Assembly: GCA_902775345.1 (NCBI GenBank)
Contig: CACYLW010000006.1
Coordinates: forward strand, 39,613 to 103,612
Reading direction: 5' to 3'
Source: an uncultured Eubacteriales bacterium
GTDB taxonomy: Bacteria; Bacillota; Clostridia; Peptostreptococcales; Anaerovoracaceae
DNA: 64,000 nucleotides
In this document: positions 42,662 through 62,273 of the stretch, piece after piece
Layout of the letters: each line of letters starts with the position of its first letter
How positions within the stretch are numbered: the stretch's first letter is position 1
Translations under genes and position numbers: made by a program
The notes under the pieces: generated by a model
Told to the model about the DNA's origin: nothing
What the model saw: only the letters and a program-made list of their open reading frames with translations
The model's database searches: none

Positions 42662-43663
42662 TTATCCAAAGTTTGGTTCCTCATGAGTCACAGCTTCAAT
42701 TATTTCACTTTCTGTAAATTCACTCCAGTCTGTGTAGCATAATTTGAACTCTCTATCAAAATAGTCTATTTCCATTTTATAAAGATCAATGTTCTTCTCC
42801 TTAGCTATTTTTGCTAATTCCAAGGCGGTTTGAAGTTCTACCCTCACTCCAAGAAATATTGCATCTGGTTTAAAGGTGAAAAAAGTTGTGTCTGTATTGT
42901 CACATACAATTCTCCACTCCTTTTCGTAATCCCATACCTTGCTCTTTTGTAAAACAGTCAACAATGGGAATGGATACTGCTTGTCATCTACCCCATTATT
43001 CATATCAAGATATAAAGCTCGTGTAATTGCCATTACACTTGCGTTATATCTTGAATCCTTATATATCACTGGAAATAATGGCTTACCTGGTCTCCTGCAT
43101 ATGCATCTTTTACACTCGTCGCAATCATTGCATTCAGGAATATCTATTATCTCAGTATTGTATCTTATGGCAAATCCCCTATGTTCTGATGCATAGTGTG
43201 ACCACATAAGTGGTGAGTCTATTGTTTCGCTTAAACATAGGATTTTAACTCTTTCCCTATTTTGTTGAATATAACTTAATCCAGCATTCAAAAGTTCAGT
43301 TCTTTTAAGGATGTTATTGATGTCATCATCCATTCCAGCTGGATTATTAAAAACCGGTGCATCATTAGGAAAATGAAATACATGTTGAACCATTTCATTC
43401 GGATCAACATATGCTATGCTCTCTGTAGGATCATTAAACGCAGCGGGTTTACTTAGGTAGAGTTTCTCTTCGCGCAAACTATCTATATGCATAGGCTTCG
43501 GGTCCCGAAACTTATATAGATAACTAGGCAGAGTAGCATCTAATGTGGTAATAATATCGTTCACATATTTACTAATACGTTCAGGGCTTATATTTTTCCC
43601 TTGATAATCTTCTAACTTTTTCAATAGTGAATAAAACCTATTGATTCCCTGATTTCTATTCAT
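42662..43663 (-). CDS. DUF2971 family protein
   Basis: LYKFRD...LREEKLYLSKPAAFNDPTES, LCLSETIDSPLMWSHYASEHRGFAIRY and KSKVWDYEKEWRIV are hallmark DUF2971 blocks. There is an inserted Cys cluster, CNDCDECKRCIC. Confidence 0.8.
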   Translation of the reverse strand: MNRNQGINRFYSLLKKLEDYQGKNISPERISKYVNDIITTLDATLPSYLYKFRDPKPMHIDSLREEKLYLSKPAAFNDPTESIAYVDPNEMVQHVFHFPNDAPVFNNPAGMDDDINNILKRTELLNAGLSYIQQNRERVKILCLSETIDSPLMWSHYASEHRGFAIRYNTEIIDIPECNDCDECKRCICRRPGKPLFPVIYKDSRYNASVMAITRALYLDMNNGVDDKQYPFPLLTVLQKSKVWDYEKEWRIVCDNTDTTFFTFKPDAIFLGVRVELQTALELAKIAKEKNIDLYKMEIDYFDREFKLCYTDWSEFTESEIIEAVTHEEPNFG

Positions 43664-43955: not shown

Positions 43956-44351
43956 TCATAAAAAAATGGTAAAGAAGAGATCATAGTCTTTCTTTACGTC
44001 TTTAAGGATATTGGACAGGACCTTTTCTCTGCTCATAGCATTCACAAGCTGAGTCTCCATTGACGAAAGGTCCAGACTAGATGGTATGAGGTCTACTCCT
44101 TCAGGATGATGGATAATGGTATCCCGCACCGCTGGCCTATATTCCTGTGTTGCAAGATACATCAATTTTCCCAGTGACTTCTCAAGTGTATCTCCGTTCC
44201 ACCCAAGAGATGCTGTGAGATCGCTCTGAGGGTCTGCATCCACAAGCAAAACTCTTTTTCCTTGCCTGGCTAATCCAACGCCAAGGTTCAAAGTAGTCGT
44301 TGTTTTACCCACACCGCCTTTCTGATTACATATAGCTATCGTTTTGGCCAT
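43956..44351 (-). pseudogene. Truncated parA/soj (5' half only)
   Basis: MAKTIAICNQKGGVGKTTTTLNLGVGLARQGKRVLLVDADPQ... (AGGAGG RBS). Homology stops after ...ILKDVKKDYD, before the Walker B block, and the frame ends after 7 unrelated codons. Confidence 0.8.
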
Positions 44352-44425
44352 TAATAAAAACCTCCTAGCAGCCACATATCATCACTTCCACAATCTTGTT
44401 AGGGCTCAGTTAATTCAGCCAATGG

Positions 44426-44447: not shown

Positions 44448-44545
44448 CTCGGTCCGACGACAGTCATATCACCTTTTATTATGTTGAAAAGTTGAGGCAT
44501 CTCATCGATTTTTTGTCAAACGACTAAACATTTGCACGTTAAAAA
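44448..44545 (-). pseudogene. Stub of a bacterial sugar (polyprenyl-phosphate glycosyl-1-phosphate) transferase gene
   Basis: The minus strand reads KIDEMPQLFNIIKGDMTVVGP (compare the family motif LDELPQL.NVLKGDMSLVGPRP) and ends exactly at the 22-bp repeat. Upstream FSRLTK lies in another frame across an A6 run (frameshift), and stops lie further upstream. Confidence 0.6.
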
Positions 44546-44872
44546 GTGGCTAAAGCCTAGTGTTTTCAAGGCGTTTAGCCACTTTCTGATTTTTTAGGAC
44601 TTGCTATACATAATACCTGTTTAATCCTATAATTGCATGTATTTTTCTCTCTTAGAAAGGCGTTTTTTATCTTAAAACTACCACTTTATTTGACTGTCAC
44701 TTTCTTCCCGGCATTTGCTTTGGTAAAGATTTTTTTTATAAGTCTTCACGTATTTCTTATTATCTGCTTTCTCCAAAATGGAGATGCAATTTTCTCCATT
44801 TTTGCTTGCAACTTTTGGGAATTTGCACTTGCAAAAAACAATCGAGCCGCCTTTTAGTTAGCCTTCCAATCC

Positions 44873-44890: not shown

Positions 44891-45751
44891 TTACCTCTTT
44901 AGCTCGCCTAAGTAGTCTCCGTTAATGTATATGTACGGACCGGGTTCTCCCTCACCGCCATAGTACTCTCCTCTGCTTGCGAGCTGATCAAGCAGTTGAT
45001 CTGTATCGCTTACACGGATTGCCTGGTAGGGCTGCTCGAACGCAAGCTTTTCTACAAACAGGTACTTGTCTTCGGCCTGTTTTATCAGGACTCCGGTGTG
45101 GCCTGTGAAGGTCTGCCTGAAGTCCGGATCATAAAACACGAGGCTGACAAGAGACACGTTTTCATTGCTGATGCTGAAGCCATACTCTTTCCACATGTTG
45201 CCATAGACTTCTGAAGGATCCTCGTTTTCTCCAGACGCCCTGTCACCGAAAAGGGTCGTGAACAGCCCGAGATTCTTTCTGATAGCTTCGTACCTGTCAG
45301 TGTTTTCGATGGCATCGACATCGAACATCAGGTATGTTCCTGTGTACTCGGCATCGGTTTTCTCAGCTGTGATGAGCCCGTCCAGCAGGAGCATCGCAGT
45401 CATCCTGCAGTCAGCGTCCGAAAAGTCGTGGTGCTTTTCCCAGCCGTCAGCACATGCCGCAAGATCGGGTTTATTATCTCCGGGCTGCACCCATTTATCT
45501 GTCAGACGGGAGTCTTTGCCTGCGGAGCCTGCAAAATCCAGGACCCAGTCATTGAACACAGCGACATTCGAAAGCCCGGCATCATTCAGGACATTGCAAA
45601 CCTCAGAAGCAGTCGTGCTTCCGGCCATATTAGTAACTGAAGGCATCGATGCATCTGCAGCATCAGTGCCTTCATTATTTTGCGAACTGCACCCGGCCAA
45701 AGCCAGGAGAGCAATAATGATTATTATGGAGATAGCTAATTTCTTTTTCAT
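44891..45751 (-). CDS. Lipoprotein (DUF4300-like, tentative)
   Basis: The lipobox is in MKKKLAISIIIIIALLALAGCSS. The gene is visibly richer in G+C than its neighbours. The family assignment is from memory only. Confidence 0.8.
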   Translation of the reverse strand: MKKKLAISIIIIIALLALAGCSSQNNEGTDAADASMPSVTNMAGSTTASEVCNVLNDAGLSNVAVFNDWVLDFAGSAGKDSRLTDKWVQPGDNKPDLAACADGWEKHHDFSDADCRMTAMLLLDGLITAEKTDAEYTGTYLMFDVDAIENTDRYEAIRKNLGLFTTLFGDRASGENEDPSEVYGNMWKEYGFSISNENVSLVSLVFYDPDFRQTFTGHTGVLIKQAEDKYLFVEKLAFEQPYQAIRVSDTDQLLDQLASRGEYYGGEGEPGPYIYINGDYLGELKR

Positions 45752-45797
45752 AATGTATATGTCTTAGTTATCCATGCACAAACGGCGACCGGTAGTT

Positions 45798-46640
45798 TTA
45801 TTGCCTTAACCATGTAGAAATGAGCTTTTCAGAGTCTTTCCAATAAAACTCTTCTACATATTTACCTTTGATAAACTCTATCGGTTTACCGTCCTTATCA
45901 ACAGTCATAAGCTCCGGTCCGTTTTCATCTATAAAGAACCAATGCTTTTGCTGCCCCTGCTTCTTAATTATTTCTATCGCTTCTCTGACAGCATTTGCTG
46001 CATTAATAATTTCCTTGTCAATCTGAAATCTTATTAGGGAATCCTGTATCTCTTTCAACTTTTCGAGAGACCCGCGCATGATTGGATGTAAAGAGATGAA
46101 TTGTGCCGGCTGCCTCTTGATTATTTCCTTCTTTGTATTATTGAAAGTACTATCACTTAGCAAAATATCCTTCGAACAGCCAACCTCGAACACTTTATTG
46201 TTACTTCCCCAAAAAGTGCCCTGAATAATCCCAGCGGAATGTGTAACATAATTTCGTATAATAATTGTCATCGCGTAATCATCAGAAGTATCGAAAGCAT
46301 CATGGGTCAGTTGATTAAAGAGTGTTTTGAACTCTTCTTTTCTTGGATGATTAGCAATATACTTCTTCCAGTGATCAAGGAATATTTCGAACTCCAAGAA
46401 ATATGATCTGGCTCTTCGCTCTAACGCAATCTGTCCTTGCCTTGTCGGAGTATCCGTTTCTTCTTTCAGAAACACAAAATCCTGATATGCAGATTCCACG
46501 TATAGGATCCTGTCAACATTCATTTGAAACTTCGCAAGAACCTTAACTGCTGAGTATATGCTGTCTGCATTATGTATCACCGGAGTGTAATCCGATTTCA
46601 TCGTTGGAACTATCGGTTGTTCATAGCATAATTTATACAT
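45798..46640 (-). CDS. Hypothetical protein with an Rx4H (HEPN/Abi_2-like) motif, partner of the upstream ATPase
   Basis: ATG 46640 (RBS GAAGGA) overlaps the ATPase stop by 8 nt. AMTIIIRNYVTHSAG has R135-x4-H140 (track numbering) in a predicted helical protein. Confidence 0.7.
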   Translation of the reverse strand: MYKLCYEQPIVPTMKSDYTPVIHNADSIYSAVKVLAKFQMNVDRILYVESAYQDFVFLKEETDTPTRQGQIALERRARSYFLEFEIFLDHWKKYIANHPRKEEFKTLFNQLTHDAFDTSDDYAMTIIIRNYVTHSAGIIQGTFWGSNNKVFEVGCSKDILLSDSTFNNTKKEIIKRQPAQFISLHPIMRGSLEKLKEIQDSLIRFQIDKEIINAANAVREAIEIIKKQGQQKHWFFIDENGPELMTVDKDGKPIEFIKGKYVEEFYWKDSEKLISTWLRQ

Positions 46641-47805
46641 TGAATTCCTTCTGTACAACTATCTTTGCTGCCTCCCGAAACACCTTGTTCAAATTGTAAA
46701 TAGAATCAGTATCAGGACTTGTAGAAAACACATCATTTTCCACTGCATTTTTCAATGATTGATTGTTCTTTTTCAGATAATCCGAAGCATATATGCAAGT
46801 AACCTTATTGTCGTCAATCTCATCTCTACGCAGGAAAGCAAAAGAATGAAATGGCAGGTTCATATCGAGAACATCCGTATTATGTGTAGTAAAGAACAGT
46901 TGCTGATTCCCTTCAAGGATATCTGTCATTAACGCTAGAAATGCCGTTTCTGCAACTGAATGAACATGTGAAAATTTTTCATCACAATATACAAAGTTAT
47001 TTGCTTTAAGTTTTATTGATGTAATCAAGTCTGCTATGCCTACGCCATCTGCGGTTCCGCTTGACAACTTATCCGCTTCCATAACTACACCATCTTTTAT
47101 CAAGACAGAATGATTTTTGTAGTCGATTATAAAGGTATTATCTTTTCCTTTATCTTTGATTTTCTTCACCTGCTCTATTCTAGGGTCGAGAGCTTTCAAG
47201 GTCTCTTCTAACATCGCGGCATATATATTTGGCTCAAACGGCTCAATAACCCGCTGCAGACTACTATCCACAAGCCTTAGCTCGAATTTCCATGTAATGA
47301 AAGGAACGCTTTCAAGCGCTTGAACATAGTTATCAAAGTGTTCCGAAGGTTTTTCACTTAGTCTCTTAACGCATTTTTCATAGCTGTCATTCTTTAAGAT
47401 TTTTTCTCTTTTTACATCAACGTAAATGTCTTCACTCCGGATATCTGAATAGCTCTTTTTTCTTCCCTTAAATACCGCATTTACTCTATATAAGTAATTG
47501 TCGTCAAAAGCCATATCAAGAGAAAAGCTGGCATCCTTCTGCGGATCTTCTATCAAGTCGGCAATTAGTGCATATTCTCTTTTTGCAATAAAATTGAAAG
47601 CTCCCATCAAGACCTTTCCTAATGCAGTTTTGCCTGTTGCATTAGCCCCCATTAATACAATTAACTTCTTGTATCTGAAATTAGGTCTTCCCACAAGATG
47701 TTCCTCTGCAATCGAAGAGCTAACCGGCTTTTTTGTGTAAGTGAGATGCATAGAAAAGTCATTGAACAACAGGAAATTGTCTAATTTTACATCTAATAAG
47801 ACCAT
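46633..47805 (-). CDS. ABC-type (AAA_21/OLD-class-like) ATPase
   Basis: Walker A GANATGKTALGK, signature-like KLSSGTADG, Walker B NFVYCDE and H-loop FFTTHNTDVLD. RBS AAGGAGA. Confidence 0.85.
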   Translation of the reverse strand: MVLLDVKLDNFLLFNDFSMHLTYTKKPVSSSIAEEHLVGRPNFRYKKLIVLMGANATGKTALGKVLMGAFNFIAKREYALIADLIEDPQKDASFSLDMAFDDNYLYRVNAVFKGRKKSYSDIRSEDIYVDVKREKILKNDSYEKCVKRLSEKPSEHFDNYVQALESVPFITWKFELRLVDSSLQRVIEPFEPNIYAAMLEETLKALDPRIEQVKKIKDKGKDNTFIIDYKNHSVLIKDGVVMEADKLSSGTADGVGIADLITSIKLKANNFVYCDEKFSHVHSVAETAFLALMTDILEGNQQLFFTTHNTDVLDMNLPFHSFAFLRRDEIDDNKVTCIYASDYLKKNNQSLKNAVENDVFSTSPDTDSIYNLNKVFREAAKIVVQKEFNV

Positions 47806-47825
47806 TGTTTTTCTCCTTATAAAAC

Positions 47826-47862
47826 AATACGATTAGTTCACACATTCTGAACTAATCGTATT
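47826..47862. promoter_or_regulatory. Perfect 14-bp inverted repeat with a 9-nt spacer, immediately upstream of the ATPase RBS
   Basis: AATACGATTAGTTC-ACACATTCT-GAACTAATCGTATT. It could be an operator, or a terminator/attenuator for the upstream gene. Confidence 0.8.
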
Positions 47863-47966
47863 ATATCGTGTCGTGTTTAGGCTGTCAATATTTGGCAAAA
47901 GTGTATATTCCGTTTGATAAGATCCTCCTTCTCGGCAGTTCAGGACAATAACCACACTCGTTGTAA

Positions 47967-48357: not shown

Positions 48358-49473
48358 TTACTCCAGTTTTTGCTTTATGTGATGACATATGTGCTCAAGC
48401 TCTGGAACAAGTGTCATTTCGTTATATCCCATTTCGTTTAGTTCGCTCAGTATACGTTGCTTATTTATTATATATACCGAAGAATAGTGTAATTGCGGAT
48501 TTTCATCTATACCGAAAATAATAAAAGATCCCTTTTGTCTTAACAGTCGCTCATTATCCTTATCTTCTTCATATTCTATAAAGTATGATTTCCTTAATTT
48601 TTCAAAATCCGCATTTTTATAGACCTTCCCTGCTGCATAAGCAGCAATCTGTTCTACTTCTTTAGAGTCGCTTGTGACAGTCTCCAGATCCATAAAGCCA
48701 AATACTTCACCTATGTCGTACAGTTCTTTTTCACTTCCAAATACAATAGTGCACGCCATAAATAATGCCACATAACGATCTATAGAAACATCTAGCAATC
48801 TTGTTGGTAACCCATAATGCTGCATTATTGCTAGTATTTTATAATCTGTTTTCCCCTCAGCTTCCTTACCACAGTTTTTTATAAATTCTTTATATAAGTC
48901 TATCTCTTTGTCCTTCCATTTTCCTCTCATAACACTTGGTAGGAGTTTATAGCGGTAACAACCATGGCCCCTATAAAAACCATATTCTCCCATTAACTTG
49001 TCGAAGGACTCAACAGAATCAACAAACTTTGTTTTATTTGAATGGATTTTTAAAAAGTTTTCAATAATGCTATTGTAAAGCTTTTCAAACGGAAGCGATA
49101 TTTTGTAAAACCTTGTATCAGCCGGCTGAAAGCGGAATGTATCATATTTAGCACTGTAAGCCACTCCCATTTTGTTGCACAAAAGATCTTGTAAATAAAC
49201 TAAATCCACTTTGTAGTTTATAAACAAATCTTTTCCATCATCGCTCCGATAATACACTATATAAAAGTCTGAAACCTTGCACCAAGCAATAAAGTGGTGT
49301 TTATGTATATCAGGATTCTTCTCTCCATGTGAAGCCGATTCAAATTGCTTGAAGAGATAGTTCTGGTTAGGTGAACCGCCACAGATAATGTAAACATCTC
49401 CAAGCTGTGCACAATCTATTTTCAATAACGAGCCGTGTGCTTCTATAATTTCAGTCATTATAGCCAGTGACAT
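48358..49473 (-). CDS. FRG domain-containing protein
   Basis: FYRGHGCYRYKLLPSVMR...LAIMQHYGLPTRLLDVSIDRYVALFMAC is the FRG signature. ATG 49473 has an AAGGAGA RBS, whereas the track start at 49506 has none. Confidence 0.85.
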   Translation of the reverse strand: MSLAIMTEIIEAHGSLLKIDCAQLGDVYIICGGSPNQNYLFKQFESASHGEKNPDIHKHHFIAWCKVSDFYIVYYRSDDGKDLFINYKVDLVYLQDLLCNKMGVAYSAKYDTFRFQPADTRFYKISLPFEKLYNSIIENFLKIHSNKTKFVDSVESFDKLMGEYGFYRGHGCYRYKLLPSVMRGKWKDKEIDLYKEFIKNCGKEAEGKTDYKILAIMQHYGLPTRLLDVSIDRYVALFMACTIVFGSEKELYDIGEVFGFMDLETVTSDSKEVEQIAAYAAGKVYKNADFEKLRKSYFIEYEEDKDNERLLRQKGSFIIFGIDENPQLHYSSVYIINKQRILSELNEMGYNEMTLVPELEHICHHIKQKLE

Positions 49474-49572
49474 CTGTAATTCTCCTTGCTGTTCACTTTT
49501 CTTCATATTGAAAATACGGAATCTATATTAAAGAAACATACTCTAATGGAGACATAGAACCGTCCACTGTCT

Positions 49573-49985
49573 CCTGTACTGGCTCGTAGAAGGTGTCTGG
49601 GTGGTTCGGGTCGAAGATCTCGTTGGCCCACATCAGCGTTACGAGGTTTTCGGTCTCGCTCAGATTGATTATGTTGTGTGTATATCACGGCAGCATGTGC
49701 ACGGCCTGGATATTTGCCTCGCGCTCTGTTTCGTCGAGGCATGCACCTGTCTTGCCTGTCTCGAAGTCGATGCCCAGCTTGCGTTCCTAGATCAGCCCAT
49801 GGCCGCTTACTACGATGAAGAGCTCCCACTTGCTGTTGTGCCAGCGCTGGCCCTTCGTGATTTCAGGCTTCAAAATGTTTACGGAGAACTGGACGTAGTC
49901 TGCGGTCTTGAGCGGCTTGGTGAATGAGCTGCTTGAGATCGAAGGTATCATGAGTGTAGCCGGCTGTTCGCGAGTTCTCCTGGCG
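49573..49985 (-). pseudogene. Remnant of a CapF/WbjC-type sugar-nucleotide reductase gene (C-terminal cupin part) with in-frame stops
   Basis: The minus frame reads FSVNILKPEITKGQRWHNSKWELFIVVSGHGLI*ERKLGIDFE...NIQAVHMLP*YTHNIINLSETENLVTLMWANEIFDPNHPDTFYEPV. The final block matches the CapF cupin ...GYTHNI.N....MVT.MW.NE.FD...PDT as I recall it. The remnant is a G+C-rich island in low-G+C DNA. Confidence 0.7.
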
Positions 49986-50122
49986 CTCGACGATACATCC
50001 CAGAGTCGCCTTGTGTGTCACAGGAGCTCCGCAGTATCGGTCGTCATAATTCCAAAGCGGCTGGCCATCTTACTCAATGCCAGTCTAACCGTGCCTGCCC
50101 CTTTACTCCGGTTTTAAAGATG

Positions 50123-51175
50123 CTACTGACATAAGTCTATACTAATGCCCAATCTGCATCCATATCGGCATAGTCTAACCATATCGCAGTCATAACACTT
50201 TATTTTTACTCTTTCTCTGAAATCTGAAAATTGTTTCCCATTCCAAACTTCCCGAATAGATTGTGCTCGCAATGATTCAACTATGCCATCATCCCAAATC
50301 CCAAAAGAGCACGGATGACAATGCATCTGGCTATCAATATACATTGAAAACGTAGCTGCTTCGCATGCATCAATAGATGCCGGATGAATTGTTTTTCCAA
50401 GCCTCAATATCGCTGGGGTAAAGCACGTGTCAAACCCAATTTTAAAGGCGTACTTCTGAGATGCCAACTCGAAAAACCGATTCAGTCTCTCATCTTTTGC
50501 AGATAGTACTTTCTCCTCAACACCCTCACCAATCGGTTTATATAAGATGAATACTACTGCATTTAAACCTTTTGGAAAGAGACCCTTTCCCAGTCTGATT
50601 ATCGCCTCATCTATAGTGTCTGATGATATCACAAAATGCACATTGGTTATGCAACCAGCTTCAAAAAGTCTTTTCACAGTTCTCAGCGTCTCATAGTTGC
50701 TTTCCTTTTCGTTAATAAGTCTCGAATACCAAGACACTGCAACAGCTCCACAGTATTCCTTTATTAAGCTTATCTCTTCATCTGTGATTTGAAAGCCACT
50801 TGTCGTTACGTTAGGAACAATATGATAATAGCGGCATATCTTCAAAATCTCTTCGAAATCAGGGTGCTTGTTTGGGTCTCCAGCACCACCAAGTGCTATT
50901 TGAAAAACTTTACCGCTAGACTGCCTTGCAATCTTTTCGAAATCTGCAAGCGCCATGTGTGGTGTATTCTGCTTGTGTCCATACTGGTAACAATCTATTC
51001 CTGCATTACTACAGTAACTGCCATTATGGCAGTGTCCCATTATACCAACATCCAATAACTCTGGAAATGATCTTCGTTCTGGATCGGCTCCTTCTATATC
51101 ACTTCTTATTAGAGTCCCATTCTCTTCATTGAACAACTCAAAAAAACCGTATTGCTCATCCTTGTAAATAATCAT
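50123..51175 (-). CDS. Radical-SAM-like enzyme with a SPASM domain and a non-canonical N-terminal Cys cluster
   Basis: IALGGAGDP (GGEP-like). SPASM motifs CEAATFSMYIDSQMHCHPC and CYDCDMVRLCRYGC (CX2CX5CX3C). The only N-terminal cluster is GHCHNGSYCSNAGIDC (CX5CX6C). ATG 51175 lies 2 nt after the upstream stop, and an alternative TTG lies at 51184. Confidence 0.8.
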   Translation of the reverse strand: MIIYKDEQYGFFELFNEENGTLIRSDIEGADPERRSFPELLDVGIMGHCHNGSYCSNAGIDCYQYGHKQNTPHMALADFEKIARQSSGKVFQIALGGAGDPNKHPDFEEILKICRYYHIVPNVTTSGFQITDEEISLIKEYCGAVAVSWYSRLINEKESNYETLRTVKRLFEAGCITNVHFVISSDTIDEAIIRLGKGLFPKGLNAVVFILYKPIGEGVEEKVLSAKDERLNRFFELASQKYAFKIGFDTCFTPAILRLGKTIHPASIDACEAATFSMYIDSQMHCHPCSFGIWDDGIVESLRAQSIREVWNGKQFSDFRERVKIKCYDCDMVRLCRYGCRLGISIDLCQ

Positions 51176-51177
51176 AA

Positions 51178-51573
51178 TTACCAAACACAGTCGCGACCAT
51201 TAATATAGAAATCTTTTTCTTCAATCTCAAAGCTGTCTGTTGTAAAAAACTGCGTCAGCGGGGCTTCATCACTGCTTGTATATCCCCAATAAGCATGTGC
51301 ATCACTCATGCTTTTGAATTTATCAGCTGCTTTAGAGCCAAAAATTTCCTTGATATTATCATAGGTCGGCGTCTCATAATCAAAATACTGCAATCCACCT
51401 TTCTCGAGTCCAAATAGAATATCTGCACAAAGATCATGTCCTTTATCTGACAACTTTCCGCCCTCAACAAAGCCTAGTTTCTCAAACAAATATTCCTCTG
51501 TGAGTTCTTCCTTGGATATTATAAGGAAATTTGTCGAAGAACTATTCGTAATAAAACCCATCCGGATCTTCAT
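51178..51573 (-). CDS. Hypothetical 131-aa protein (N-terminus MKIRMGFITNSSSTNF)
   Basis: AGGAGGA RBS 7 nt upstream of ATG 51573. It overlaps the upstream ORF by 32 nt. No family recognised. Confidence 0.65.
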   Translation of the reverse strand: MKIRMGFITNSSSTNFLIISKEELTEEYLFEKLGFVEGGKLSDKGHDLCADILFGLEKGGLQYFDYETPTYDNIKEIFGSKAADKFKSMSDAHAYWGYTSSDEAPLTQFFTTDSFEIEEKDFYINGRDCVW

Positions 51574-51961
51574 CTTCAATTCCTCCTATAGCTTCAGCAA
51601 ACAGCATCTTGAAGTCCTCATCATAATTTAGTGTTTCGACATTTCTATCTAGTGATCTTCTATCGCAATTCTTCATGGCATAGTGACCACTGGCGTAAAT
51701 CTTCGCCTTCTCTCGTTCAATGTTATAATGCTCCTCAATGAAATCTTCCAAACTATCAAATTCTTTGGAATAGAACCTTTTATACTCTTTCTTGAAATCT
51801 ACAGCCCCATCAAAATAGTAATCATACATACGAGAAATCATATCGCCAGCAAATGTCTTTTTTCTTACGCCGAGAGTTTTCATTACGATTCTTTTCCTTG
51901 GAATCTTATCGATTGGGAAGAATATAAAGCCCCGTGATTTATAGCATAATGGTTTGTACAT
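51542..51961 (-). CDS. Hypothetical 139-aa protein with an acidic C-terminal tail
   Basis: ATG 51961 lies 1 nt after the NTPase stop, with GAGGAG 8 nt upstream. It ends GGIEDEDPDGFYYE. No family recognised. Confidence 0.65.
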   Translation of the reverse strand: MYKPLCYKSRGFIFFPIDKIPRKRIVMKTLGVRKKTFAGDMISRMYDYYFDGAVDFKKEYKRFYSKEFDSLEDFIEEHYNIEREKAKIYASGHYAMKNCDRRSLDRNVETLNYDEDFKMLFAEAIGGIEDEDPDGFYYE

Positions 51962-51962
51962 A

Positions 51963-54143
51963 TCATTGCTCCTCATTGATAGTTGAAAGAATATCTTGTC
52001 GCATTTCTTCTTTTAATCTATCATGCTCAGGCAACGATTCGAAATAACATATCATCTCGGAATCCTCCTTATCCAGCCCGTCAATTTCAAACAAAAGAAT
52101 GAATAGCTCAGCAGCTTTCTGTATTTGCATTGCTCTATCGGGATAGTTTTCGCATACAGCTTTATGGTATTTGATCAGATCATAAGGCAAACGCAATGAA
52201 TCGTCATAAGTGCGTGCTATCATCTGCTTATACGCTCCGACAATAATCTTGATATCTCCAAGCCCAAACAGAATATCAAAATAAAGATTCAGGTTATTTG
52301 GCAATCCTACAACTGTTCCCTCCAATGTAGTATCAAACAACTTACCTCCGTCTTCATTTGGGCATATTCTAAGGCACTCACAAATGTAGTCTTTTTCAAA
52401 TTCTTCCAGGGGAAAGCCAGTTGCAAACAAAACCTTTAGTCCATAGTTTAAGAACTCGACTCTGTGTCTTGTACGATAGTATTGTGCTTTGTGTCCTTCT
52501 TCAATTCTATAAAAATCTAATATCTTTTTACAGTATAGCTTTCGTTCCTCTTCACTAAGAAGTGTATCCGTCTTGAAAAATACATATGCATATTGGATAA
52601 CACCCTCTTCACATGATACCTGTGCTTCACGGAGTCTCATCAAATCAGATATTATTCCGTCGCAATTAACAGAGATAGGAGTTGAGTTTCTCTTCATGAT
52701 GTAACGAGCAATGCAATAATCTCGCATCTCATCAAAGACGAAATAGACATATTCTGATTCCATGTTCGCGATGGTTCCTTTATGTGAAACCAGTTTTTTG
52801 CTCAATAGAATAGTTTCGTCAAAAGCTTTTTGCAAATCCTCATTTTGGAACTTAGATATATAGTCTATTTCCAAGTCATCAAATGACATCCTCGTCATCA
52901 TCGCATCTGCAATGGTATCAAGGACTTCTTCTATATTTGAATTCTTCGATTCTTTTACCCATTTGATATACTCAGAAAAAATCTCGTGCTTACGTATTGA
53001 GAGGATATCTTCATTACTTCCTTCATTGACCTCAAAGAAAATTCTAAGCAAAAGAAGATGCTGACAAATAACATGTGTGACAGCACTTGACATATATCCA
53101 GTATACTTGAAATGATTTCTATATCTTTTGATAATCCTTTGTACAGCTGCATTAGGATACTTACCGTCCCTCAAATCGTAAATTAAATGCTTTTGCTCTA
53201 TACTATCCGACAGATGCTTCGAAAACCTATCCTTGTAGTATTCACTTCTGCATGATGTAATAATCTTGAAACGATGGTATCTATCTTTATCATTAATGAA
53301 CGAACTGAGCTGTTCGCCAAACTTAGGATTGTCATTTTCGTTCACAGCATCAATCAAGATAAATAGGTGCTTTCCTCTCAACTTCAAAGTTGCGTTCACA
53401 AACCAGTAATATAATTCTTTATGTTTCCTCCAGATAGCAGGCGTTCTCAAACAATCAAGGATATAATCATCAATATCCTTGTCTATATCTCTTGAATTCA
53501 AAAGCAGCACAGGTTGCTTGAGTTTTTCTGTAAGCTCCGCAATACTGCATAATAGATTTGTTTTTCCGTTTCCCGCACTTCCGGTTAGTACGAGATAATT
53601 GCTATTCGCAGCTTTTACAAAATTCTGCTGTTCACTTAGTGTTTCCGTATATGGATAGTGTGATATTTCAAAAATAGGTTCTGTTTCGGTGTATTCTTCT
53701 TTGAGCTTAACGCCTCTCTTACCAAAACGCTCATGGTAGTCAAGAGCAGAATCTATAGCTTCTTCAATTTCCGTCAACTTGCTTCTTCTCTTAAGATGGA
53801 ATATTATGCCAAAGTCTGTGTTGCCTTCCTTCAAGACCTGTCCATAGTAATCTCCTAAACTCCAATTTTCAATATATTCTTTATCAAGTTTAACTACCTC
53901 CTCAAAATCAGTAATCTCACTTCTGCCAGAGACTTGCCACATTCCCGTTATTCCAGGTTTAGTTGTCATTCTGACCCTGTGATGCAACGAATACATCTCA
54001 AACTCCTGAAGTGTTGGCGGTCGCGTCCCTACTAGACTCATGTCACCTCTGGAAAGCAAGCAGGAAGATAAAAAAAGATGCAAAAAGATGCATGATGTGC
54101 CCAACTCCAGCATTTCCAACGGTTCTACAGTATCGATCTTCAC
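51963..54143 (-). CDS. NACHT-like STAND P-loop NTPase with a long helical C-terminal region; the N-terminal ~100 codons derive from a foreign sugar-transferase gene
   Basis: Walker [16 protein letters not shown], Walker B-like [13 protein letters not shown], and [12 protein letters not shown] (TSR-type motif), followed by about 430 aa of helical sequence. The true start is uncertain: in-frame Met codons occur only in the first ~70 codons, inside or upstream of the transferase-derived part, and there is a TTG near 53834. Confidence 0.8.
53850..54053 (-). pseudogene. Sugar-transferase 3' stub fused in frame to the NTPase ORF
   Basis: [67 protein letters not shown] is the C-terminal half of the Bac_transf family. 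Homology starts abruptly at GDMSLVG and ends at NWSLGD. Confidence 0.65.
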
Positions 54144-54716: not shown

Positions 54717-56429
54717 TTATTCAGTAATTTCCCCTATTACTTCCGCCGGTGCCTCCTTTTTCTGGCGCCCTCTTCTTTTTGTTGGTTCTCCTTTAGAAAG
54801 ATCATAAATAATGATTTTCTCCTTCGGATATAAAGTCCCCTTAAAGGAAATACTACCGCTACCTTCATCCACATCTGCTAACTTTCTAGCCGCTGCTAAC
54901 AATGCAGGGATTTTTACAACAATCGCATATGTCTGCTTAGACGCATCCTTGCTAAATGGGACTGCGTTTTTAGTATTCTCTTTACACGGCTCGATAGCCA
55001 CCTGTCTTGAAGGGGCGTGCACAAGCATTCGAATAAAGTTTGGAAAACCTAACTCCACTGCTGTTGCTTTATTGAATTTAAGATTAGTCGCGGTCAGCGT
55101 CATTACAGAGTCGCCTCTGCTCTCCTCTAGCTCTACTACTTCAAAACCTTCTAGAATACTTGCCATTTCTAAATCCTCCTTCTGTTCTTGGTTTTTCATA
55201 CCATTTTTCTCTTCGGAGGGATCCATAGCCATTTTACTACTTGCCGAAACCAGGCGAGTCACTGATACAGATCTCCATTCGGGTGATATCCCAACGAAGC
55301 CGCGTAGTCTTCCCTTCTGCTTTGGAATCAACCTTTGCTGGCCACGTTGTTTCCATTTTCGCCAACTCTGCTTATTCAGTAGTTCCTGTGCCTTATTCCA
55401 AAGATCTCGGCTGACTATTGCGTCATGGTGATCTGCAATGTAATACTGCTCCGCTTCTCCTTCATTGATTTTGGTCGTATGCGTCAGGTAATCGATTGTG
55501 ATAGTTTTCTGCATGAGAACATCACCACAGTATTTTTCATTTTGCAGGATGTTCTTCACTGCACTAGCTGTCCAGTCGTTACCATAGACTGTCTTCGCAC
55601 CAATGCTGTTTAATCTAGTCGCTATCAGGATTGGATGAATGCCTTGCACGAAGCTCTTATATATTGTCTTCACGACTTCCGCTTCCTGCGAGATGATAAC
55701 CATATTGCCATCCTCATCAGTGTCATATCCGAGTAAAGCACTTGTAGGGATCTTCTGAGTACCATTCTTCATGCGGTTCCGGATTGCCCAGCGAATATTG
55801 GCAGATATACTTCGGGATTCCTCCTGCGCAATGGACGCCATCAAACTCAGTACCATGTCGGTCTTCTCATCCAAAGAATATAGTCTCTCTTTTTCAAAAT
55901 AGATCTCTACAGGATTTTTAAGTGCTTTCAACTTTCTAATAGTCGTAAGACAGTCTACCGTGTTCCTTGCAAATCGGCTGATAGATTTCGTTATGATCAT
56001 ATCTATCTTACCTGCTTCACAATCCTCTATCATCCTTTGGAACTGTTCTCTGTGCTTAACTTGCGTTCCGCTAATTCCTTCATCAGCATAAATACCGGCA
56101 AGGACCCAGTTTTCATGTGCACTTATGAATTCTGTATAATGATTTACCTGCAGATCAAAGCTAGTTGCTTGTGCATCTTCATCTGTACTCACCCTACAGT
56201 AGGCTGCAACACGCTTTACTGGATCTGCTTCTCCCATCGGTGTTGTAAGCTTCGTTGCTGGAATGACCTGTACTTCAAAGTCTCGTTTCTTCGCACTTCC
56301 CTTCCTTTTTTTCTTAGGTTTCCGTACAACGACTACTGGATTCTGCGGAGTAGGTTCTTCAGCATTCAGGAGTGCTTCAAGCTCATCAATGGGATGCCCA
56401 GTTTTAGCTTGTTCGTTTTCCAATGTCAT
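54717..56429 (-). CDS. Large serine recombinase lacking a zinc ribbon, with an unrecognised ~150-aa C-terminal domain
   Basis: VAAYCRVSTDEDAQ, YADEGISGT and KSISRFARN (resolvase catalytic motifs) plus a recombinase domain (ALLGYDTDEDGNMVI...EKYCGD). There are no CxxC pairs. The C-terminus is MTLTATNLKFNKATAVELGFPNFIRMLVHAPSRQVAIEP... Confidence 0.9.
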   Translation of the reverse strand: MTLENEQAKTGHPIDELEALLNAEEPTPQNPVVVVRKPKKKRKGSAKKRDFEVQVIPATKLTTPMGEADPVKRVAAYCRVSTDEDAQATSFDLQVNHYTEFISAHENWVLAGIYADEGISGTQVKHREQFQRMIEDCEAGKIDMIITKSISRFARNTVDCLTTIRKLKALKNPVEIYFEKERLYSLDEKTDMVLSLMASIAQEESRSISANIRWAIRNRMKNGTQKIPTSALLGYDTDEDGNMVIISQEAEVVKTIYKSFVQGIHPILIATRLNSIGAKTVYGNDWTASAVKNILQNEKYCGDVLMQKTITIDYLTHTTKINEGEAEQYYIADHHDAIVSRDLWNKAQELLNKQSWRKWKQRGQQRLIPKQKGRLRGFVGISPEWRSVSVTRLVSASSKMAMDPSEEKNGMKNQEQKEDLEMASILEGFEVVELEESRGDSVMTLTATNLKFNKATAVELGFPNFIRMLVHAPSRQVAIEPCKENTKNAVPFSKDASKQTYAIVVKIPALLAAARKLADVDEGSGSISFKGTLYPKEKIIIYDLSKGEPTKRRGRQKKEAPAEVIGEITE

Positions 56430-57003: not shown

Positions 57004-58086
57004 TTATTCATAGGATTTTAATACGTATTCATCAAAGTATGGGAGAGTAAATATTAAACAACCCTCTACTTCCTTGATTATCCCTTTCTCTTTCATCTGT
57101 TTAAAACAACTCAAGTATGATATTTTATGTTCTTTACAAGATTCTTTAACTTTTTTCATTCCGCCATCTGCTGTTTTAGCAATGGTATAAAGGAATAATT
57201 TATCATTTTTTGGCAAGTTTTCCCAGACTTTATCATAGACGCACTCTTCTAGATACCCCTTGAATTTACTAAGGACTAGATTTGGATCGTCACCGTTATT
57301 CCATGTATAATGTCCAAGAACCTGAAAAGCTAAAGGATAACCCTTTGTTTCCGTTGCCATGTTCAAGGCCTTTCCATACCCAATTTGAAAAACAGTAAAA
57401 TACTGGGCAGCCATCAAATCTAAGTCTAGAGGTGCAAGATGAATTCTATAAATACGAGATAAACCGGATAATTGATTATTTTCTTGTAATCCCTGTAAGT
57501 TTTCGTACAATCCTGTCATCACTAAAAAAACAGGAAAGTTCAATCGGGCCAGTCTTTGATAGTCATAAGCAAATGATTGAATATTCTCGCTAGGGAAAAC
57601 ATCATCCAGAATAATCAGAACCTTCTTGTTTATATCTTTTAACCAACTCAGCATCTTTTCGATAATTACATTTATATCTTTAATGGGCTCTGCTCCCTCC
57701 ACTTCAAAGCCTCCTATTCCCGGCACCATCACACTTATTTTTGCTTTAGACAATTCCATTTTAATTGGTTGCTCTTCCAAAAGCCTCGATGCAAGATGCT
57801 GCTTCATATCTTCTTTTGGATTGAATTCTATAACGATCCAATCCTTTTGATTTTGAAAATGCTCAGCAATAAATGACAACGAGACTGTCTTTCCACTGCC
57901 CTGTATTCCTGTAATAAAACAGCTTTTATAAACTGGTGTTTCCGATGTAAAAACATCTATGATTTCCTGTACTGACTCTGTAGAGCCGCTTACCAGTGTT
58001 TGTGGGAATACATGCGGATCCAAAGTGAAAGGATTATTGATTATTCCTTTTGACGTAAGTGTGCCTGCAGTATTTTCAGTCGTCAT
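57004..58086 (-). CDS. AAA+ ATPase (Arch_ATPase/ORC-like) with a C-terminal winged-helix-like region
   Basis: Walker A FITGIQGSGKTVS and Walker B VLIILDDV. The C-terminus LFLYTIAKTADGG...SCFKQMKEKGIIKEV is wHTH-like. Confidence 0.85.
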   Translation of the reverse strand: MTTENTAGTLTSKGIINNPFTLDPHVFPQTLVSGSTESVQEIIDVFTSETPVYKSCFITGIQGSGKTVSLSFIAEHFQNQKDWIVIEFNPKEDMKQHLASRLLEEQPIKMELSKAKISVMVPGIGGFEVEGAEPIKDINVIIEKMLSWLKDINKKVLIILDDVFPSENIQSFAYDYQRLARLNFPVFLVMTGLYENLQGLQENNQLSGLSRIYRIHLAPLDLDLMAAQYFTVFQIGYGKALNMATETKGYPLAFQVLGHYTWNNGDDPNLVLSKFKGYLEECVYDKVWENLPKNDKLFLYTIAKTADGGMKKVKESCKEHKISYLSCFKQMKEKGIIKEVEGCLIFTLPYFDEYVLKSYE

Positions 58087-58935: not shown

Positions 58936-60528
58936 TTAACTCTTCACTACATCCTGAATGAGATCTGAGAAATCCAGGTCAACTTCTATGTGATCGCTAT
59001 CATAAACATATACCATATTGACTAAGTTCTTCATCATTTCCTCAGTGAGTTTATCTTCTGCAAGTATTGCATCCGCCATATTATACAACCCTATGATTCT
59101 GTCGCGTCTCTCTACTCCAGATACATTTTCAGCATTTAGCTTCGTAAGCTCCTCTTCTAGTTCTTTGATTTCACAAGTCTTCCGCTCTTTTCTTGCATTA
59201 AAGGAGTCCAGACTGATAAAACCTTCTGCGTATGAAATGTACAGATTTGCGATATCCTCTCGCTTAACTTCGCAGCGTCTTCGTATGTCATTTATATTTT
59301 TTGTCAGATCAGATTTTGGGTGGATACCAGTTCTTCCCTCGTTTTCATATACTGATTTGACCACCTGCATCTGTTCCTGCACTGCAGCAAGAACTGCCGC
59401 TTCAATTTTCCGTTCTAAATAATAATCTGTACAGCACTTACAAGAACTGCCTGTATTTAATGCATGTGAGCAATAGAAAAACGGTTCATTGTGAGCAGCT
59501 CTATGAGCGGCTCTATAGGCTAACGCAAGTCTGCAATTCCCGCAACGAATCTTACCCTTCAGCAGATATGTATTGGGGACTTTCACAGCGTGCTGTTTCT
59601 GATGCTGAAATATTTCCTGTGCTTTATAGAACGTCTCCTTGCTGACAATAGCATTATGGGCATCTTCAGTAATAATCAACTCGCTGGGTAACGCTTTTCT
59701 CACAGATCTTGATCCAGGTCTAACTAAAATCCTTCGATTATGAACAAATGCCCCAGTATACTCATACCTCTGCAGCACATCACGTATTTTAGTAGTTGTC
59801 CATAAAACCTCACTTTCGACTGTTTTGATAGGACCCGGAGATCTGCCATTCATCAGTCTGTATTTAGCAGGAGTGGGGATTCCTTGCATGTTCAGCTGAT
59901 TCACGATTGCTTTTGTATTACATCCACTGGCTGCCATTTCAAATATCCATTTTACGATTTTGGCTGCTTCTGGATCCACTGCCCATGTCCCGCGTGCATT
60001 TACATCTTTGACAAAGCCATACGGTGGATTCCCACATGTCGTCTTTCCTTGCTTCCACTTCGACATCATTGAAGATTTCACCTTCTTGGAAAGATCTCGG
60101 CTGTACATAGTGTTCACCAGATTGCTAACTGTCATATCCAGCCCAAGAGTCTTTCCCACATAGTTTTTACTGTCATAGTTGGAGTTGACCGCAATTAAGC
60201 GCACTCCGAGTATAGGAAAAATCTGGTCGATGTAATCTCCGACTATAATGTAGTCGCGCCCCAATCTGGACAGATCTTTCACTAAAATTGTATGAAAACG
60301 TTTCTTTTTCGCATCTTCTATCATTCGTATAAAGGCAGGCCTATCAAACTTTGTCCCGGAGTATCCATCATCGATATACTCGATGACATCTCCGTTCAGT
60401 TCCTCATGCTGTTTAATGTAGCTTTCGAGTAAGTTCCTCTGGTTCTCGATGCTGTTACTCTCATCTTTCCCATCTCTTCCTAGGTCTCCGTCAGCTATTG
60501 AAAGTCTGAGATAAAAAGCTATCTTCAT
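58936..60528 (-). CDS. Large serine recombinase (canonical)
   Basis: AFYLRLSIADGD, DDGYSGTKFDRPAF, VKDLSRLGRDY, a recombinase domain, zinc ribbon CGNC...CSHALNTGSSCKCC, and a coiled-coil tail. Confidence 0.9.
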   Translation of the reverse strand: MKIAFYLRLSIADGDLGRDGKDESNSIENQRNLLESYIKQHEELNGDVIEYIDDGYSGTKFDRPAFIRMIEDAKKKRFHTILVKDLSRLGRDYIIVGDYIDQIFPILGVRLIAVNSNYDSKNYVGKTLGLDMTVSNLVNTMYSRDLSKKVKSSMMSKWKQGKTTCGNPPYGFVKDVNARGTWAVDPEAAKIVKWIFEMAASGCNTKAIVNQLNMQGIPTPAKYRLMNGRSPGPIKTVESEVLWTTTKIRDVLQRYEYTGAFVHNRRILVRPGSRSVRKALPSELIITEDAHNAIVSKETFYKAQEIFQHQKQHAVKVPNTYLLKGKIRCGNCRLALAYRAAHRAAHNEPFFYCSHALNTGSSCKCCTDYYLERKIEAAVLAAVQEQMQVVKSVYENEGRTGIHPKSDLTKNINDIRRRCEVKREDIANLYISYAEGFISLDSFNARKERKTCEIKELEEELTKLNAENVSGVERRDRIIGLYNMADAILAEDKLTEEMMKNLVNMVYVYDSDHIEVDLDFSDLIQDVVKS

Positions 60529-62273
60529 GATTGCATCTCTCCTCTCAAAAGTTCCACAGTATCACAGACAACATCTGCGAAGCTAAATCTTATTTCAACA
60601 TCACCGGCAGCTGTTACAGTAATGCGCTCTACAGTGTTTTTTACAAGAGCCTCATCGAATTCATATCCGTAGCATATACCCTCAAATTTCTTATTAACAT
60701 CTGAAAACTTATCCAGCAGACGCAACTGTTTGCTGTAATCCTTTTTGAGATCAACATATTCCTGTTCCAAATTCTCCTTTTTCTTTAGTAGATTCTCACG
60801 AACATTATCATATTCTCTCTCAGTAATTACACCATCTGCCAGATCTTCATAAGATTTCATAATCGTGTTTCCTATATCTGCAAGTTTGCCTTCTATCGAG
60901 TTCATTTTTTTCAACGATGATAGTATCGGATCCTTCCCGCCATTTTCCTTCTTAAGTTTTTCAAGTACATTTGCCATATCTGACATGGTACGAATCTGAA
61001 AGTTTAGCTGATCCATCACTATCATCTTGAGCAAATTCGTACTAATACGGTGTCCTCCGCATTTTGCTTCACCTGCAAGTGGCGGACAGCTATAGAACTC
61101 CACACGACCCAGGCCGTTTTTTCTTGACCGCAACCCCTTTCTAATTTCTTCCTCTGTGGCTCGGGAATAATCATTACGGTAGAGAATATAATTCATCCGG
61201 CGGCCACATTCCGCACAGTATACAAGACCAGTCATCTGATCCCGAAAATTCTCCCTCGCTTTGACGTTATAACTCTTACTTCTGGCACTATAACAGTTCT
61301 CTTGTTTTGTGATATCCAAGATTTCTTGATAATCTCCCCTGGATACCAATGGTTCATGTGTGTCTTTATATACCGTCCACTCTTCCTGTTCAGTCTTCCT
61401 GACTGGCTCTGCTTTATATAGACACTGTCTAAGCCGCCCCATACAAACATCACCAACATAACTTGGATTGTACAAAATTGTTCTGACTGTTGAATAAGTC
61501 CATTTCTTGTTAAGTGATGGCTTCCCATTCTTCAGATTTCGATAATCGGAAGGTGTAGGAACTCCCATCTGATTCATTCTATTAGCTATTTCGTCAATCT
61601 TTATGCCTATACGCATCCATTGAAAAATCGCTCTCACATACTGAGCTGCTACAGGATCCACTATGTATTTCGACTTATCCTCTGAAAAATCATATCCGAA
61701 CGGTGCCCGTCCGTTTGGAACAACATCGCTTCTCATACGTCTTGCTTCAGCAGCAATAGTCATTTTTCTTGACTGATCTTTTGAATACATGGAGTTCACA
61801 ATATTCTTGATGGGAACCGATATTTTATCCTGATCATCTTTGCGGAAGCTGTCATAATTGTCATTTACAGATATGAATCTGACATTGAGCCTTGGAAGCA
61901 CTGTATCCAGCAGGAATCCGGCTTCTAGATAATCTCTACCGAATCGAGACAGATCCTTTACAACAATGCACCTGATTTTTCCAATCTGAATATCCTCCAT
62001 TAGGCTCTGGAAAGCTGGTCTTTCAAAGTTGGTTCCTGTAAATCCGTTGTCTGCGTAGCTTCCTGCCAGTTCCAGTTCCGGATGTTCATTGATGAAGCTG
62101 TAGAGTATAGCCATCTGATTTCGCAATGATTCATCTGTTTCATTACCGCCGTTCTCTATCGAAAGCCTTCCGTATGCAGCTGTAGGCATGAGTTCGATAA
62201 CGTCTTTCAAAGGTGTTATCAGAGGCTCTGAAGGCTGCGACAGGTTTACTGTTTTTCTACTTTTCCTTGCCAT
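60525..62273 (-). CDS. Large serine recombinase (canonical)
   Basis: AAYGRLSIENGG, ADNGFTGTNFERPAF, VKDLSRFGRDY and zinc ribbon YCAECGRRM...YSCPP...KCGGH. 4-nt overlap (ATGA) with the downstream recombinase gene. The start may be an internal Met. Confidence 0.9.
   Translation of the reverse strand: MARKSRKTVNLSQPSEPLITPLKDVIELMPTAAYGRLSIENGGNETDESLRNQMAILYSFINEHPELELAGSYADNGFTGTNFERPAFQSLMEDIQIGKIRCIVVKDLSRFGRDYLEAGFLLDTVLPRLNVRFISVNDNYDSFRKDDQDKISVPIKNIVNSMYSKDQSRKMTIAAEARRMRSDVVPNGRAPFGYDFSEDKSKYIVDPVAAQYVRAIFQWMRIGIKIDEIANRMNQMGVPTPSDYRNLKNGKPSLNKKWTYSTVRTILYNPSYVGDVCMGRLRQCLYKAEPVRKTEQEEWTVYKDTHEPLVSRGDYQEILDITKQENCYSARSKSYNVKARENFRDQMTGLVYCAECGRRMNYILYRNDYSRATEEEIRKGLRSRKNGLGRVEFYSCPPLAGEAKCGGHRISTNLLKMIVMDQLNFQIRTMSDMANVLEKLKKENGGKDPILSSLKKMNSIEGKLADIGNTIMKSYEDLADGVITEREYDNVRENLLKKKENLEQEYVDLKKDYSKQLRLLDKFSDVNKKFEGICYGYEFDEALVKNTVERITVTAAGDVEIRFSFADVVCDTVELLRGEMQS

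Follow-up and report, generated by a model that had tools for sequence, protein, structure and literature searches.

A stretch of 64,000 nucleotides (nt) from an uncultured Eubacteriales bacterium (contig CACYLW010000006.1, positions 39,613 to 103,612, hereafter the window) contains two overlapping minus-strand genes. The first encodes a 390-amino-acid (aa) ATPase of the ATP-binding cassette (ABC) type that resembles AbiLi, the second a 280-aa helical protein with an RNxxxH motif reminiscent of HEPN ribonucleases (RNases). Alignments with related loci show that the promoter, the candidate operator and the ATPase derive from an AbiL-like two-gene system with a small TOPRIM-like nuclease, whose gene was replaced by a cassette carrying the gene of the 280-aa protein. 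Hence, the pairing of ATPase and 280-aa protein is a one-off variant, and a conserved two-gene system is not established. The main value of the locus is instead the new HEPN-like family to which the 280-aa protein belongs.

The joint between the ATPase and partner genes

The closest relative of the ATPase locus is L013, one of the comparison loci (L numbers), whose ATPase protein is 99% identical. At the DNA level, window positions 47890-46668, which span the promoter, the palindrome and the ATPase gene to about 35 nt before its stop, are 97% identical to L013. For a second block (45794-44844), which contains a DUF4300 gene, the identity is 94%. According to blastn, L013 has no counterpart to the 873 bp between these two blocks. 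Since identity to L013 breaks off before the ATPase stop and resumes after the stop of the partner gene, the latter is a swapped-in cassette, consisting of a 27 nt leader, the 280-aa open reading frame (ORF) and 3 nt past its stop codon. The 5′ break lies directly after GGAGGCAG, the ribosome-binding site (RBS) of the TOPRIM gene, and the 3′ break 3 nt past the partner stop. The cassette leader carries its own RBS, AGAAGGAA, at 46645-46652, 4 nt before the partner ATG. As the 5′ break is located inside the end of the ATPase gene, the ATPase reads 11 codons into foreign sequence: its C-terminus changed from ..VFQEAGL to ..VFREAAKIVVQKEFNV, with the last 11 codons (AKIVVQKEFNV) being cassette-derived. 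A preliminary description of the locus, made from its letters alone, had noted an overlap of 8 nt between the ATPase stop and the partner ATG. This overlap was found as described (stop at 46633-46635, ATG at 46640), and it is a by-product of the join. The junction between the two genes is thus, as judged from these alignments, a recombination joint (Table 1).

In the same description, the ATPase and its partner were regarded as a two-gene system, a claim for which the absence of the pair elsewhere had been named beforehand as counterevidence. Such absence is indeed what was observed. The ATPase was compared across 21 other loci with homologues of 29-99% identity (five metagenome loci and 16 viral contigs), and the 280-aa family across 12 other contexts (L001-L004, L005, L006, L007, L008, L009/L010, L011/L012, L019, L044/L045, L046/L047, L048 and L049). 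None of the 21 ATPase loci harbors a member of the 280-aa family in hmmsearch, and an AbiLi-like ATPase adjoins a family member in none of the 12 partner contexts. Both genes are seen together solely in the window's own element, which is represented by three contigs.

Table 1. Positions of the features at the ATPase-partner locus in window coordinates.
Feature	Position	Strand	Description and basis
Sigma-70-type promoter	47860..47888	minus	TTGACA-17 nt-TATAAT, 12/12 consensus; upstream of the ATPase operon
Perfect inverted repeat	47826..47862		Arms 47826-47840 and 47848-47862 (15 nt, 100% complementary), 7-nt loop
ATPase RBS	47813..47818	minus	AAGGAG, 7 nt before the ATG; read from the sequence
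ATPase ORF	46633-47805	minus	390 aa, AbiLi-like, ABC/OLD-type; overlaps the partner gene
Swapped-in cassette	45795..46667	minus	873 bp; blastn breakpoints and junction alignments against L013
Gene of the 280-aa protein	45798-46640	minus	ATG at 46640, stop 45798-45800; unannotated RNxxxH (HEPN-like) family
Candidate catalytic motif	46239..46256	minus	Codons R129-N130-Y-V-T-H134; conservation in 73 members

A homologue or remnant of the TOPRIM partner was sought across the whole window, and none was found. In L013 itself, the TOPRIM-like partner (L013:5143-5559) is C-terminally altered with 138 aa instead of 167, and the copy in L016 (L016:3809-4168) breaks off where masked, unreadable bases begin. 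Decay of the TOPRIM gene may have set in before the swap in the lineage of the window. The DUF4300 gene, which encodes a lipoprotein-like product (window 44891-45751, minus strand; L013:2949-3830), has a GC content of 0.50, whereas that of the adjacent genes is 0.37. In the window this gene is found downstream of the partner, but in L013 upstream of the ATPase, which shows that the rearrangement was larger than a simple insertion.

The AbiL-like ATPase and its candidate operator

The ATPase is an ordinary member of the known ABC/OLD/AbiL kind. Its earlier assignment to the SMC/OLD/AAA_21 type was based on four motifs, all of which are present: GANATGKT (residues 53-60), LSSGT (247-251), FVYCDE (271-276) and TTHN (306-309), with core residues that are invariant among 19 homologues of 50-87% identity. 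The assignment is further supported by PADLOC, in which the AbiLi model PDLC02335, supplied without a curated cut-off, matches residues 2-379 with an E value of 5.1e-26. A match to phrog_5836 was obtained at 2e-41, and matches to AAA_15/AAA_21 are weak. AriA is matched partially (1e-7, residues 135-312), and HEC-01A also more weakly than AbiLi. More than 1,600 homologues of the ATPase were found. In 16 of the 21 other loci, including the 99%-identical relative, the gene following that of the ATPase encodes a TOPRIM-like protein of 119-179 aa, usually with an overlap of 4 nt. This small protein carries the motifs Y(Y/L)VEG..E and VVLVFDTD, and six of its 16 copies are truncated to less than 150 aa. 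Its weak profile matches are all of the TOPRIM type (GajA Toprim region, 8e-5; HEC-01B, 2e-3; AbiLii, 0.013; OLD-like_TOPRIM_1, 0.016), while a profile search of PDB sequences gave nothing meaningful.

Upstream of the operon, the −35/−10 arrangement of the consensus promoter recurs in L013 and L014. A perfect 14-bp palindrome had been reported about 20 nt upstream of the ATPase. The repeat exists and ends 20 nt from the ATPase ATG, just 5′ of AAGGAG, although its arms and loop (Table 1) make it slightly longer than stated. Its core in the window reads ATTAGTT-N11-AACTAAT, and its left arm overlaps the −10 box and contains the position at which transcription is expected to start. In generalized form, ATTANTT-N11-AANTAAT, the core occurs 14 times in the 440 kb formed by the window and the fetched loci, compared with a shuffle mean of 0.18. 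All 14 occurrences are located upstream of an ATPase homologue (37-99% identity) and none elsewhere; each of the 13 fetched ATPase loci has a single core that ends 15-34 nt before the ATPase start.

If fully transcribed, the palindrome would form a stable hairpin (−20.9 kcal/mol, z −5.4). A DNA operator for a dimeric protein is favored over such an RNA structure for four reasons. Transcription is expected to start inside the left arm; both arms are changed together in L032 (ATTATTT/AAATAAT); position 5 of the half-site differs between the arms (G vs C) in L027, L029, L030 and L034, by which RNA pairing would be broken; and the repeat of L031 lies upstream of the −10 box. An Rfam search with the palindrome returned no match either, and its interpretation as an RNA attenuator or riboswitch was rejected. 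Of the two functions initially considered, operator or attenuator, merely the former is hence retained, supported by the overlap with the −10 box of a 12/12 promoter. The palindrome is best read as a conserved operator-like site that belongs to the ATPase family rather than to this particular pair. Another perfect inverted repeat is found at window positions 44543-44585, with 12-nt arms and a 19-nt spacer (AAAGTGGCTAAA/TTTAGCCACTTT), in the intergenic region between a probably truncated ParA gene and the DUF4300 gene.

The RNxxxH family and its genomic contexts

The 280-aa protein contains the motif IIIRNYVTHSAG, encoded on the minus strand, whose R-x4-H arrangement had been proposed as its conserved polar motif. 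This proposal is confirmed by an alignment of 73 full-length family members that are 14-49% identical to the 280-aa query, with a mean column identity of 15%. Its sole invariant columns are R129 and H134, and the position following the arginine is N in 68 and D in five of the 73 sequences. The previous residue numbers, R135 and H140, refer to the same motif as counted from an upstream TTG at 46658. The ATG at 46640 is favored as the start codon because all homologues begin with MY(K/Q/R)LCYE. According to the literature, HEPN domains display Rx4-6H at the end of helix 3 with a polar residue after the R, as well as Ex3[KR] in helix 2 (PMC3710099). The former signature, Rx4-6H with N, D or H directly after the R, is found in the 280-aa family. 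For the latter, E74-x3-R78 is invariant in the close clade, whereas of the wide set 35/73 sequences have E74 and 37/73 have R78.

The AlphaFold2 model of the protein has a predicted local distance difference test score (pLDDT) of 89.7 for the full length and of 92.1 for the core domain (residues 24-230). In this model, R129-N130 are positioned at the end of helix 120-132, with H134 in the loop that follows, whereas E74-x3-R78 is part of the preceding long helix 67-96. With helices assigned as inferred from the model, the predicted placement of both motifs fits the published HEPN description. The 280-aa protein thus appears HEPN-like by motif and predicted topology, a fold that is left unconfirmed by profile and fold searches (see below).

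At 50% identity the family comprises 134 representatives (E<=1e-3), and at 90% it forms 20 clusters. Just one, two and two family loci were obtained when contigs from genomes, metagenomes and viruses, respectively, were scanned; tblastn against plasmid and phage collections gave no match, and PDB sequences searched with the close (A2) and wide (A3) family profiles gave none at E<=10. As anticipated, TOPRIM, DUF4435 and HNH profiles do not match the 280-aa protein, nor do AbiLii and AriB, and it possesses neither a CxxC pair nor a zinc finger. All source names on record for members read "hypothetical protein" with the exception of the natural chimera P0043 (384 aa), which is listed by JGI as YutE, DUF86 family. 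Residues 1-150 of this chimera correspond to the zinc finger and the first DUF4145 helices of RAZR/PD-T7-4 (PADLOC 1.4e-37; PDB 9Y9C 2.6e-15), while residues 150-324, including RNYVVH, match the 280-aa family (E 7e-24). This suggests an exchange of sensor and effector halves within HEPN proteins. Overall, the family is new to the databases, yet fits a known superfamily by its motif.

Members of the close clade occur as solo genes in a recurring slot of polysaccharide loci, between variable and rml-type genes (L005, L006, L007, L009/L010 and L019). The slot in these capsule and exopolysaccharide loci (L005:8001-8846, L006:8001-8759, L007:1741-2598, L009:5001-5849 and L019:4001-4600) is flanked by flippase, glycosyltransferase, acyltransferase, PGM and galE genes on one side versus rmlB-like dehydratase/epimerase genes on the other. 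Here, the family genes are co-directional and tightly packed without a partner gene. In L011/L012, a close-clade member follows an XRE-type helix-turn-helix (HTH_3) gene at a distance of 14 nt; in L001-L004, it follows the gene of a 144-aa unknown protein with a 20-nt overlap inside a restriction-modification/defence island; and in L008, it resides in a Pycsar island. Members of distant clades immediately follow large serine recombinases in L044/L045 and L048, adjoin AbiTii and a Septu-like pair in L049, or are isolated (L046/L047). The candidate partners encoded upstream of family members (the HTH_3 protein, the 144-aa protein and the window ATPase) are unrelated to one another. Because members stand alone inside housekeeping-type operons, the protein cannot be freely toxic and must be self-restrained until triggered.

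Two further candidates were examined and rejected. The 144-aa gene, which lies upstream of P0012, is no remnant of the ATPase. In L008, the contig with the partner homologue also encodes a 418-aa ATPase of the AAA_15/AAA_21 type, unrelated to that of the window, whose gene overlaps that of an unknown 283-aa protein (L008:6461-8543); neither gene of this pair is homologous to those of the window.

Origin of the locus and comparison with known systems

Taken together, the most likely reading, of moderate probability, is a mosaic locus, in which the AbiL-type ATPase has been orphaned and the gene after it encodes a HEPN-like RNase that acts on its own and is transcribed from the regulated promoter of the ATPase. 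The 873-bp cassette has replaced the TOPRIM gene from just past its RBS. In this scenario, the 280-aa gene would be co-transcribed with the orphaned ATPase from the strong ATPase promoter, possibly with translational coupling, and this promoter would probably be repressed via the ATTANTT-N11-AANTAAT candidate operator. The encoded protein would be a HEPN-type, metal-independent RNase that serves as a self-contained abortive-infection or toxin effector and stays inactive until triggered, akin to the single-protein HEPN systems RAZR/PD-T7-4 and AbiD/AbiF. That the ATPase controls the RNase is conceivable, yet unlikely and not required by the evidence.

Several results weigh against this mosaic scenario, beginning with those on the HEPN assignment. 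Searches with the 280-aa protein against Pfam, PADLOC, NCBIfam and PHROGs gave no match, with none of the Pfam HEPN-clan (CL0291) and Abi models being hit at E<=1. Across the 73 members, HEPN-clan profiles match only the chimera P0043 (DUF4145), the non-chimeric proteins also being without a PADLOC or NCBIfam match, and PF07751 (Abi_2) matches neither the 280-aa protein nor any of the 73 at E<=0.01. A comparison of the family with a RAZR/DUF4145 alignment of six plasmid-borne homologues in hhalign was negative (probability 0.1). When PDB and BFVD were searched with the full model in Foldseek, generic helical bundles and tail fibres were all that was retrieved (E>=0.02; none in PDB at E<0.1). 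With the core domain, the HEPN toxins 8xeh_B (prob 0.60, TM score 0.53 by target), 8xdj_C and 8yuf are among the top 50, but beside other helical bundles, and these matches are not separable from other four-helix bundles. Thus, from the original designation as HEPN/Abi_2-like, the conserved R-x4-H motif persists, whereas HEPN-clan or Abi_2 profile matches and a significant Foldseek match are missing. Finally, after the swap the operon still has its layout, an RBS and two ORFs, both intact and overlapping at stop and start, which fits a functional exchange of effectors as well.

In such a functional swap, the AbiL-type ATPase would sense infection and, like AriA in its control of AriB in PARIS, hold its HEPN-like RNase or release it, and the pair would resemble a split PrrC/RloC. 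The precise replacement of the TOPRIM gene with retention of promoter, operator and RBS, the 8-nt overlap of two intact ORFs and the intact catalytic motifs of the ATPase would suit this idea. Moreover, ABC-ATPase-HEPN fusions as well as an N-terminal domain shared by HEPN and TOPRIM effectors are documented (PMC3710099). The pair, however, occurs in one element only; all 12 other partner contexts are devoid of the ATPase and all 21 other ATPase loci of the partner family. The 280-aa protein is, furthermore, colinear with ATPase-free homologues of 42-53% identity and lacks any additional segment that might be an adaptor. The swap is recent, the DNA being 97% identical, and intact ORFs therefore say little about selection in either direction. 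A functional swap is hence rather unlikely. The same doubt applies to the broader proposal of a recent natural effector exchange, in which a HEPN-like RNase from a hitherto unrecognised family took the place of the TOPRIM nuclease of an AbiL/PARIS-type sensor ATPase and the new pair now works as a split PrrC-like system. If true, ABC-ATPase sensors would be able to accept unrelated effectors without an adaptor.

It is improbable that the 280-aa protein is not a nuclease at all, but a helical protein with a regulatory or binding role. Such a protein could be a HEPN-like bundle without catalysis that binds RNA or a ligand, as exemplified by MtlR, or a polysaccharide-synthesis factor, with R, N and H being used for binding. 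Such a role would be in line with the lack of any nuclease family match by profile or fold and with the fixed position of the family in polysaccharide loci. Yet, a pattern in which precisely R and H are strictly invariant and R is followed by N represents the signature of catalytic HEPN proteins, which non-catalytic HEPN families typically lose (PMC3710099). Other members are moreover found in defence islands and beside recombinases, and P0043 joins the catalytic half to a RAZR-type sensor. Finally, a toxin-antitoxin module, in which a constitutively active RNxxxH toxin is neutralized by an upstream product (HTH_3, the 144-aa protein or the ATPase), may be suggested by the tight or overlapping upstream genes in L001-L004, L011/L012 and the window, and by how commonly HEPN toxins are preceded by antitoxin genes (PMC3710099), but it is likewise improbable given that these upstream genes are mutually unrelated and that at least seven independent contexts (L005, L006, L007, L009, L019, L048 and L046) lack a candidate antitoxin, so that the protein is not freely toxic.

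The locus provides a new candidate HEPN-type family without a Pfam, PADLOC, NCBIfam or PDB relative, whose invariant core of two residues is well suited to mutational analysis. The family is unusual in its genomic positions, with a fixed slot in polysaccharide loci and members beside large serine recombinases. Conceivably, the family could be a new single-gene immunity protein that guards polysaccharide (phage-receptor) loci and serine-recombinase elements. The joint itself is a break-and-join event at single-gene resolution that illustrates how defence operons exchange effectors, with the 97%-identical relative keeping the ancestral TOPRIM partner. It also urges caution, as one overlapping gene pair does not establish a "system". 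For the widespread AbiL-like ATPase/TOPRIM family, the conserved promoter-operator makes regulation testable. Both the RNxxxH family and the candidate operator are worth a bench test.

The genes are part of a low-GC island (window 40000-64000; 0.37-0.44 versus 0.50-0.55 to its left) with four large serine recombinase genes (54717-56429, 58936-60528, 60525-62273 and 62257-63750). This island is probably an integrative mobile element with defence-type cargo. Upstream of the ATPase, the minus-strand genes at 48358-54143 encode an FRG-domain protein (48358-49506), a radical-SAM/SPASM protein (50123-51184), two small ORFs (51178-51976) and a 726-aa protein with a Bac_transf fragment and a NACHT-like P-loop (51963-54143), which may form another uncharacterised defence-type cluster. 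Also on the minus strand, a ParA/AAA_31-type ORF of 139 aa (43956-44375) matches the first 120 of 177 profile positions and is probably a truncated or frameshifted partition gene. A DUF2971 protein (42662-43663) and a 360-aa AAA_16/ATPase_2-type P-loop protein (57004-58086) are encoded on the same strand of the island; both types of domain are often encountered in defence islands.

Among known systems, AbiL and PARIS combine an ABC ATPase with a TOPRIM nuclease (PMC13064643). The window ATPase matches AbiLi, and its relatives reside in two-gene operons with the small TOPRIM-like partner and a 4-nt overlap. In the window, this partner is missing and an unrelated helical RNxxxH protein takes its place. 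Even the canonical partner of this ATPase subfamily (~167-179 aa) is only weakly AbiLii-like (0.013). With respect to PARIS (AriA/AriB) and HEC-01, the ATPase matches AriA and HEC-01A more weakly than AbiLi, and the partner has no AriB or DUF4435 match. In PrrC, RloC and APECO1_4465, an ABC ATPase is fused to a C-terminal HEPN anticodon nuclease that it regulates, and ERFG_01251 is named along with them in the context of ABC-HEPN fusions and the shared N-terminal domain (PMC3710099). The juxtaposition of an ABC-type ATPase with a HEPN-type RNase, here a predicted one, recalls these proteins. However, they are single polypeptides of conserved families, in contrast to two ORFs with an 8-nt overlap that arose from recent recombination, and the AbiLi-like window ATPase has no PrrC-type match in PADLOC.

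The 280-aa protein was also compared with solo effectors. AbiD/AbiF-type Abi HEPN proteins are found alone on mobile elements and in restriction-modification neighbourhoods (PMC3710099). They share the solo helical architecture of about 300 aa and an RNxxxH-type motif with the 280-aa family, which differs in the absence of a PF07751 match. RAZR is a proven single-protein HEPN RNase, in which R and H are essential for activity (PMC13017515). The window protein differs from RAZR/PD-T7-4 by the lack of a zinc finger, by RNxxxH instead of the R-x7-H (VRxxGNxxxH) of RAZR, and by the absence of both profile-profile similarity and a PADLOC PD-T7-4 match. Nevertheless, both are stand-alone, single-gene effectors on mobile elements, and the chimera P0043 links the two.

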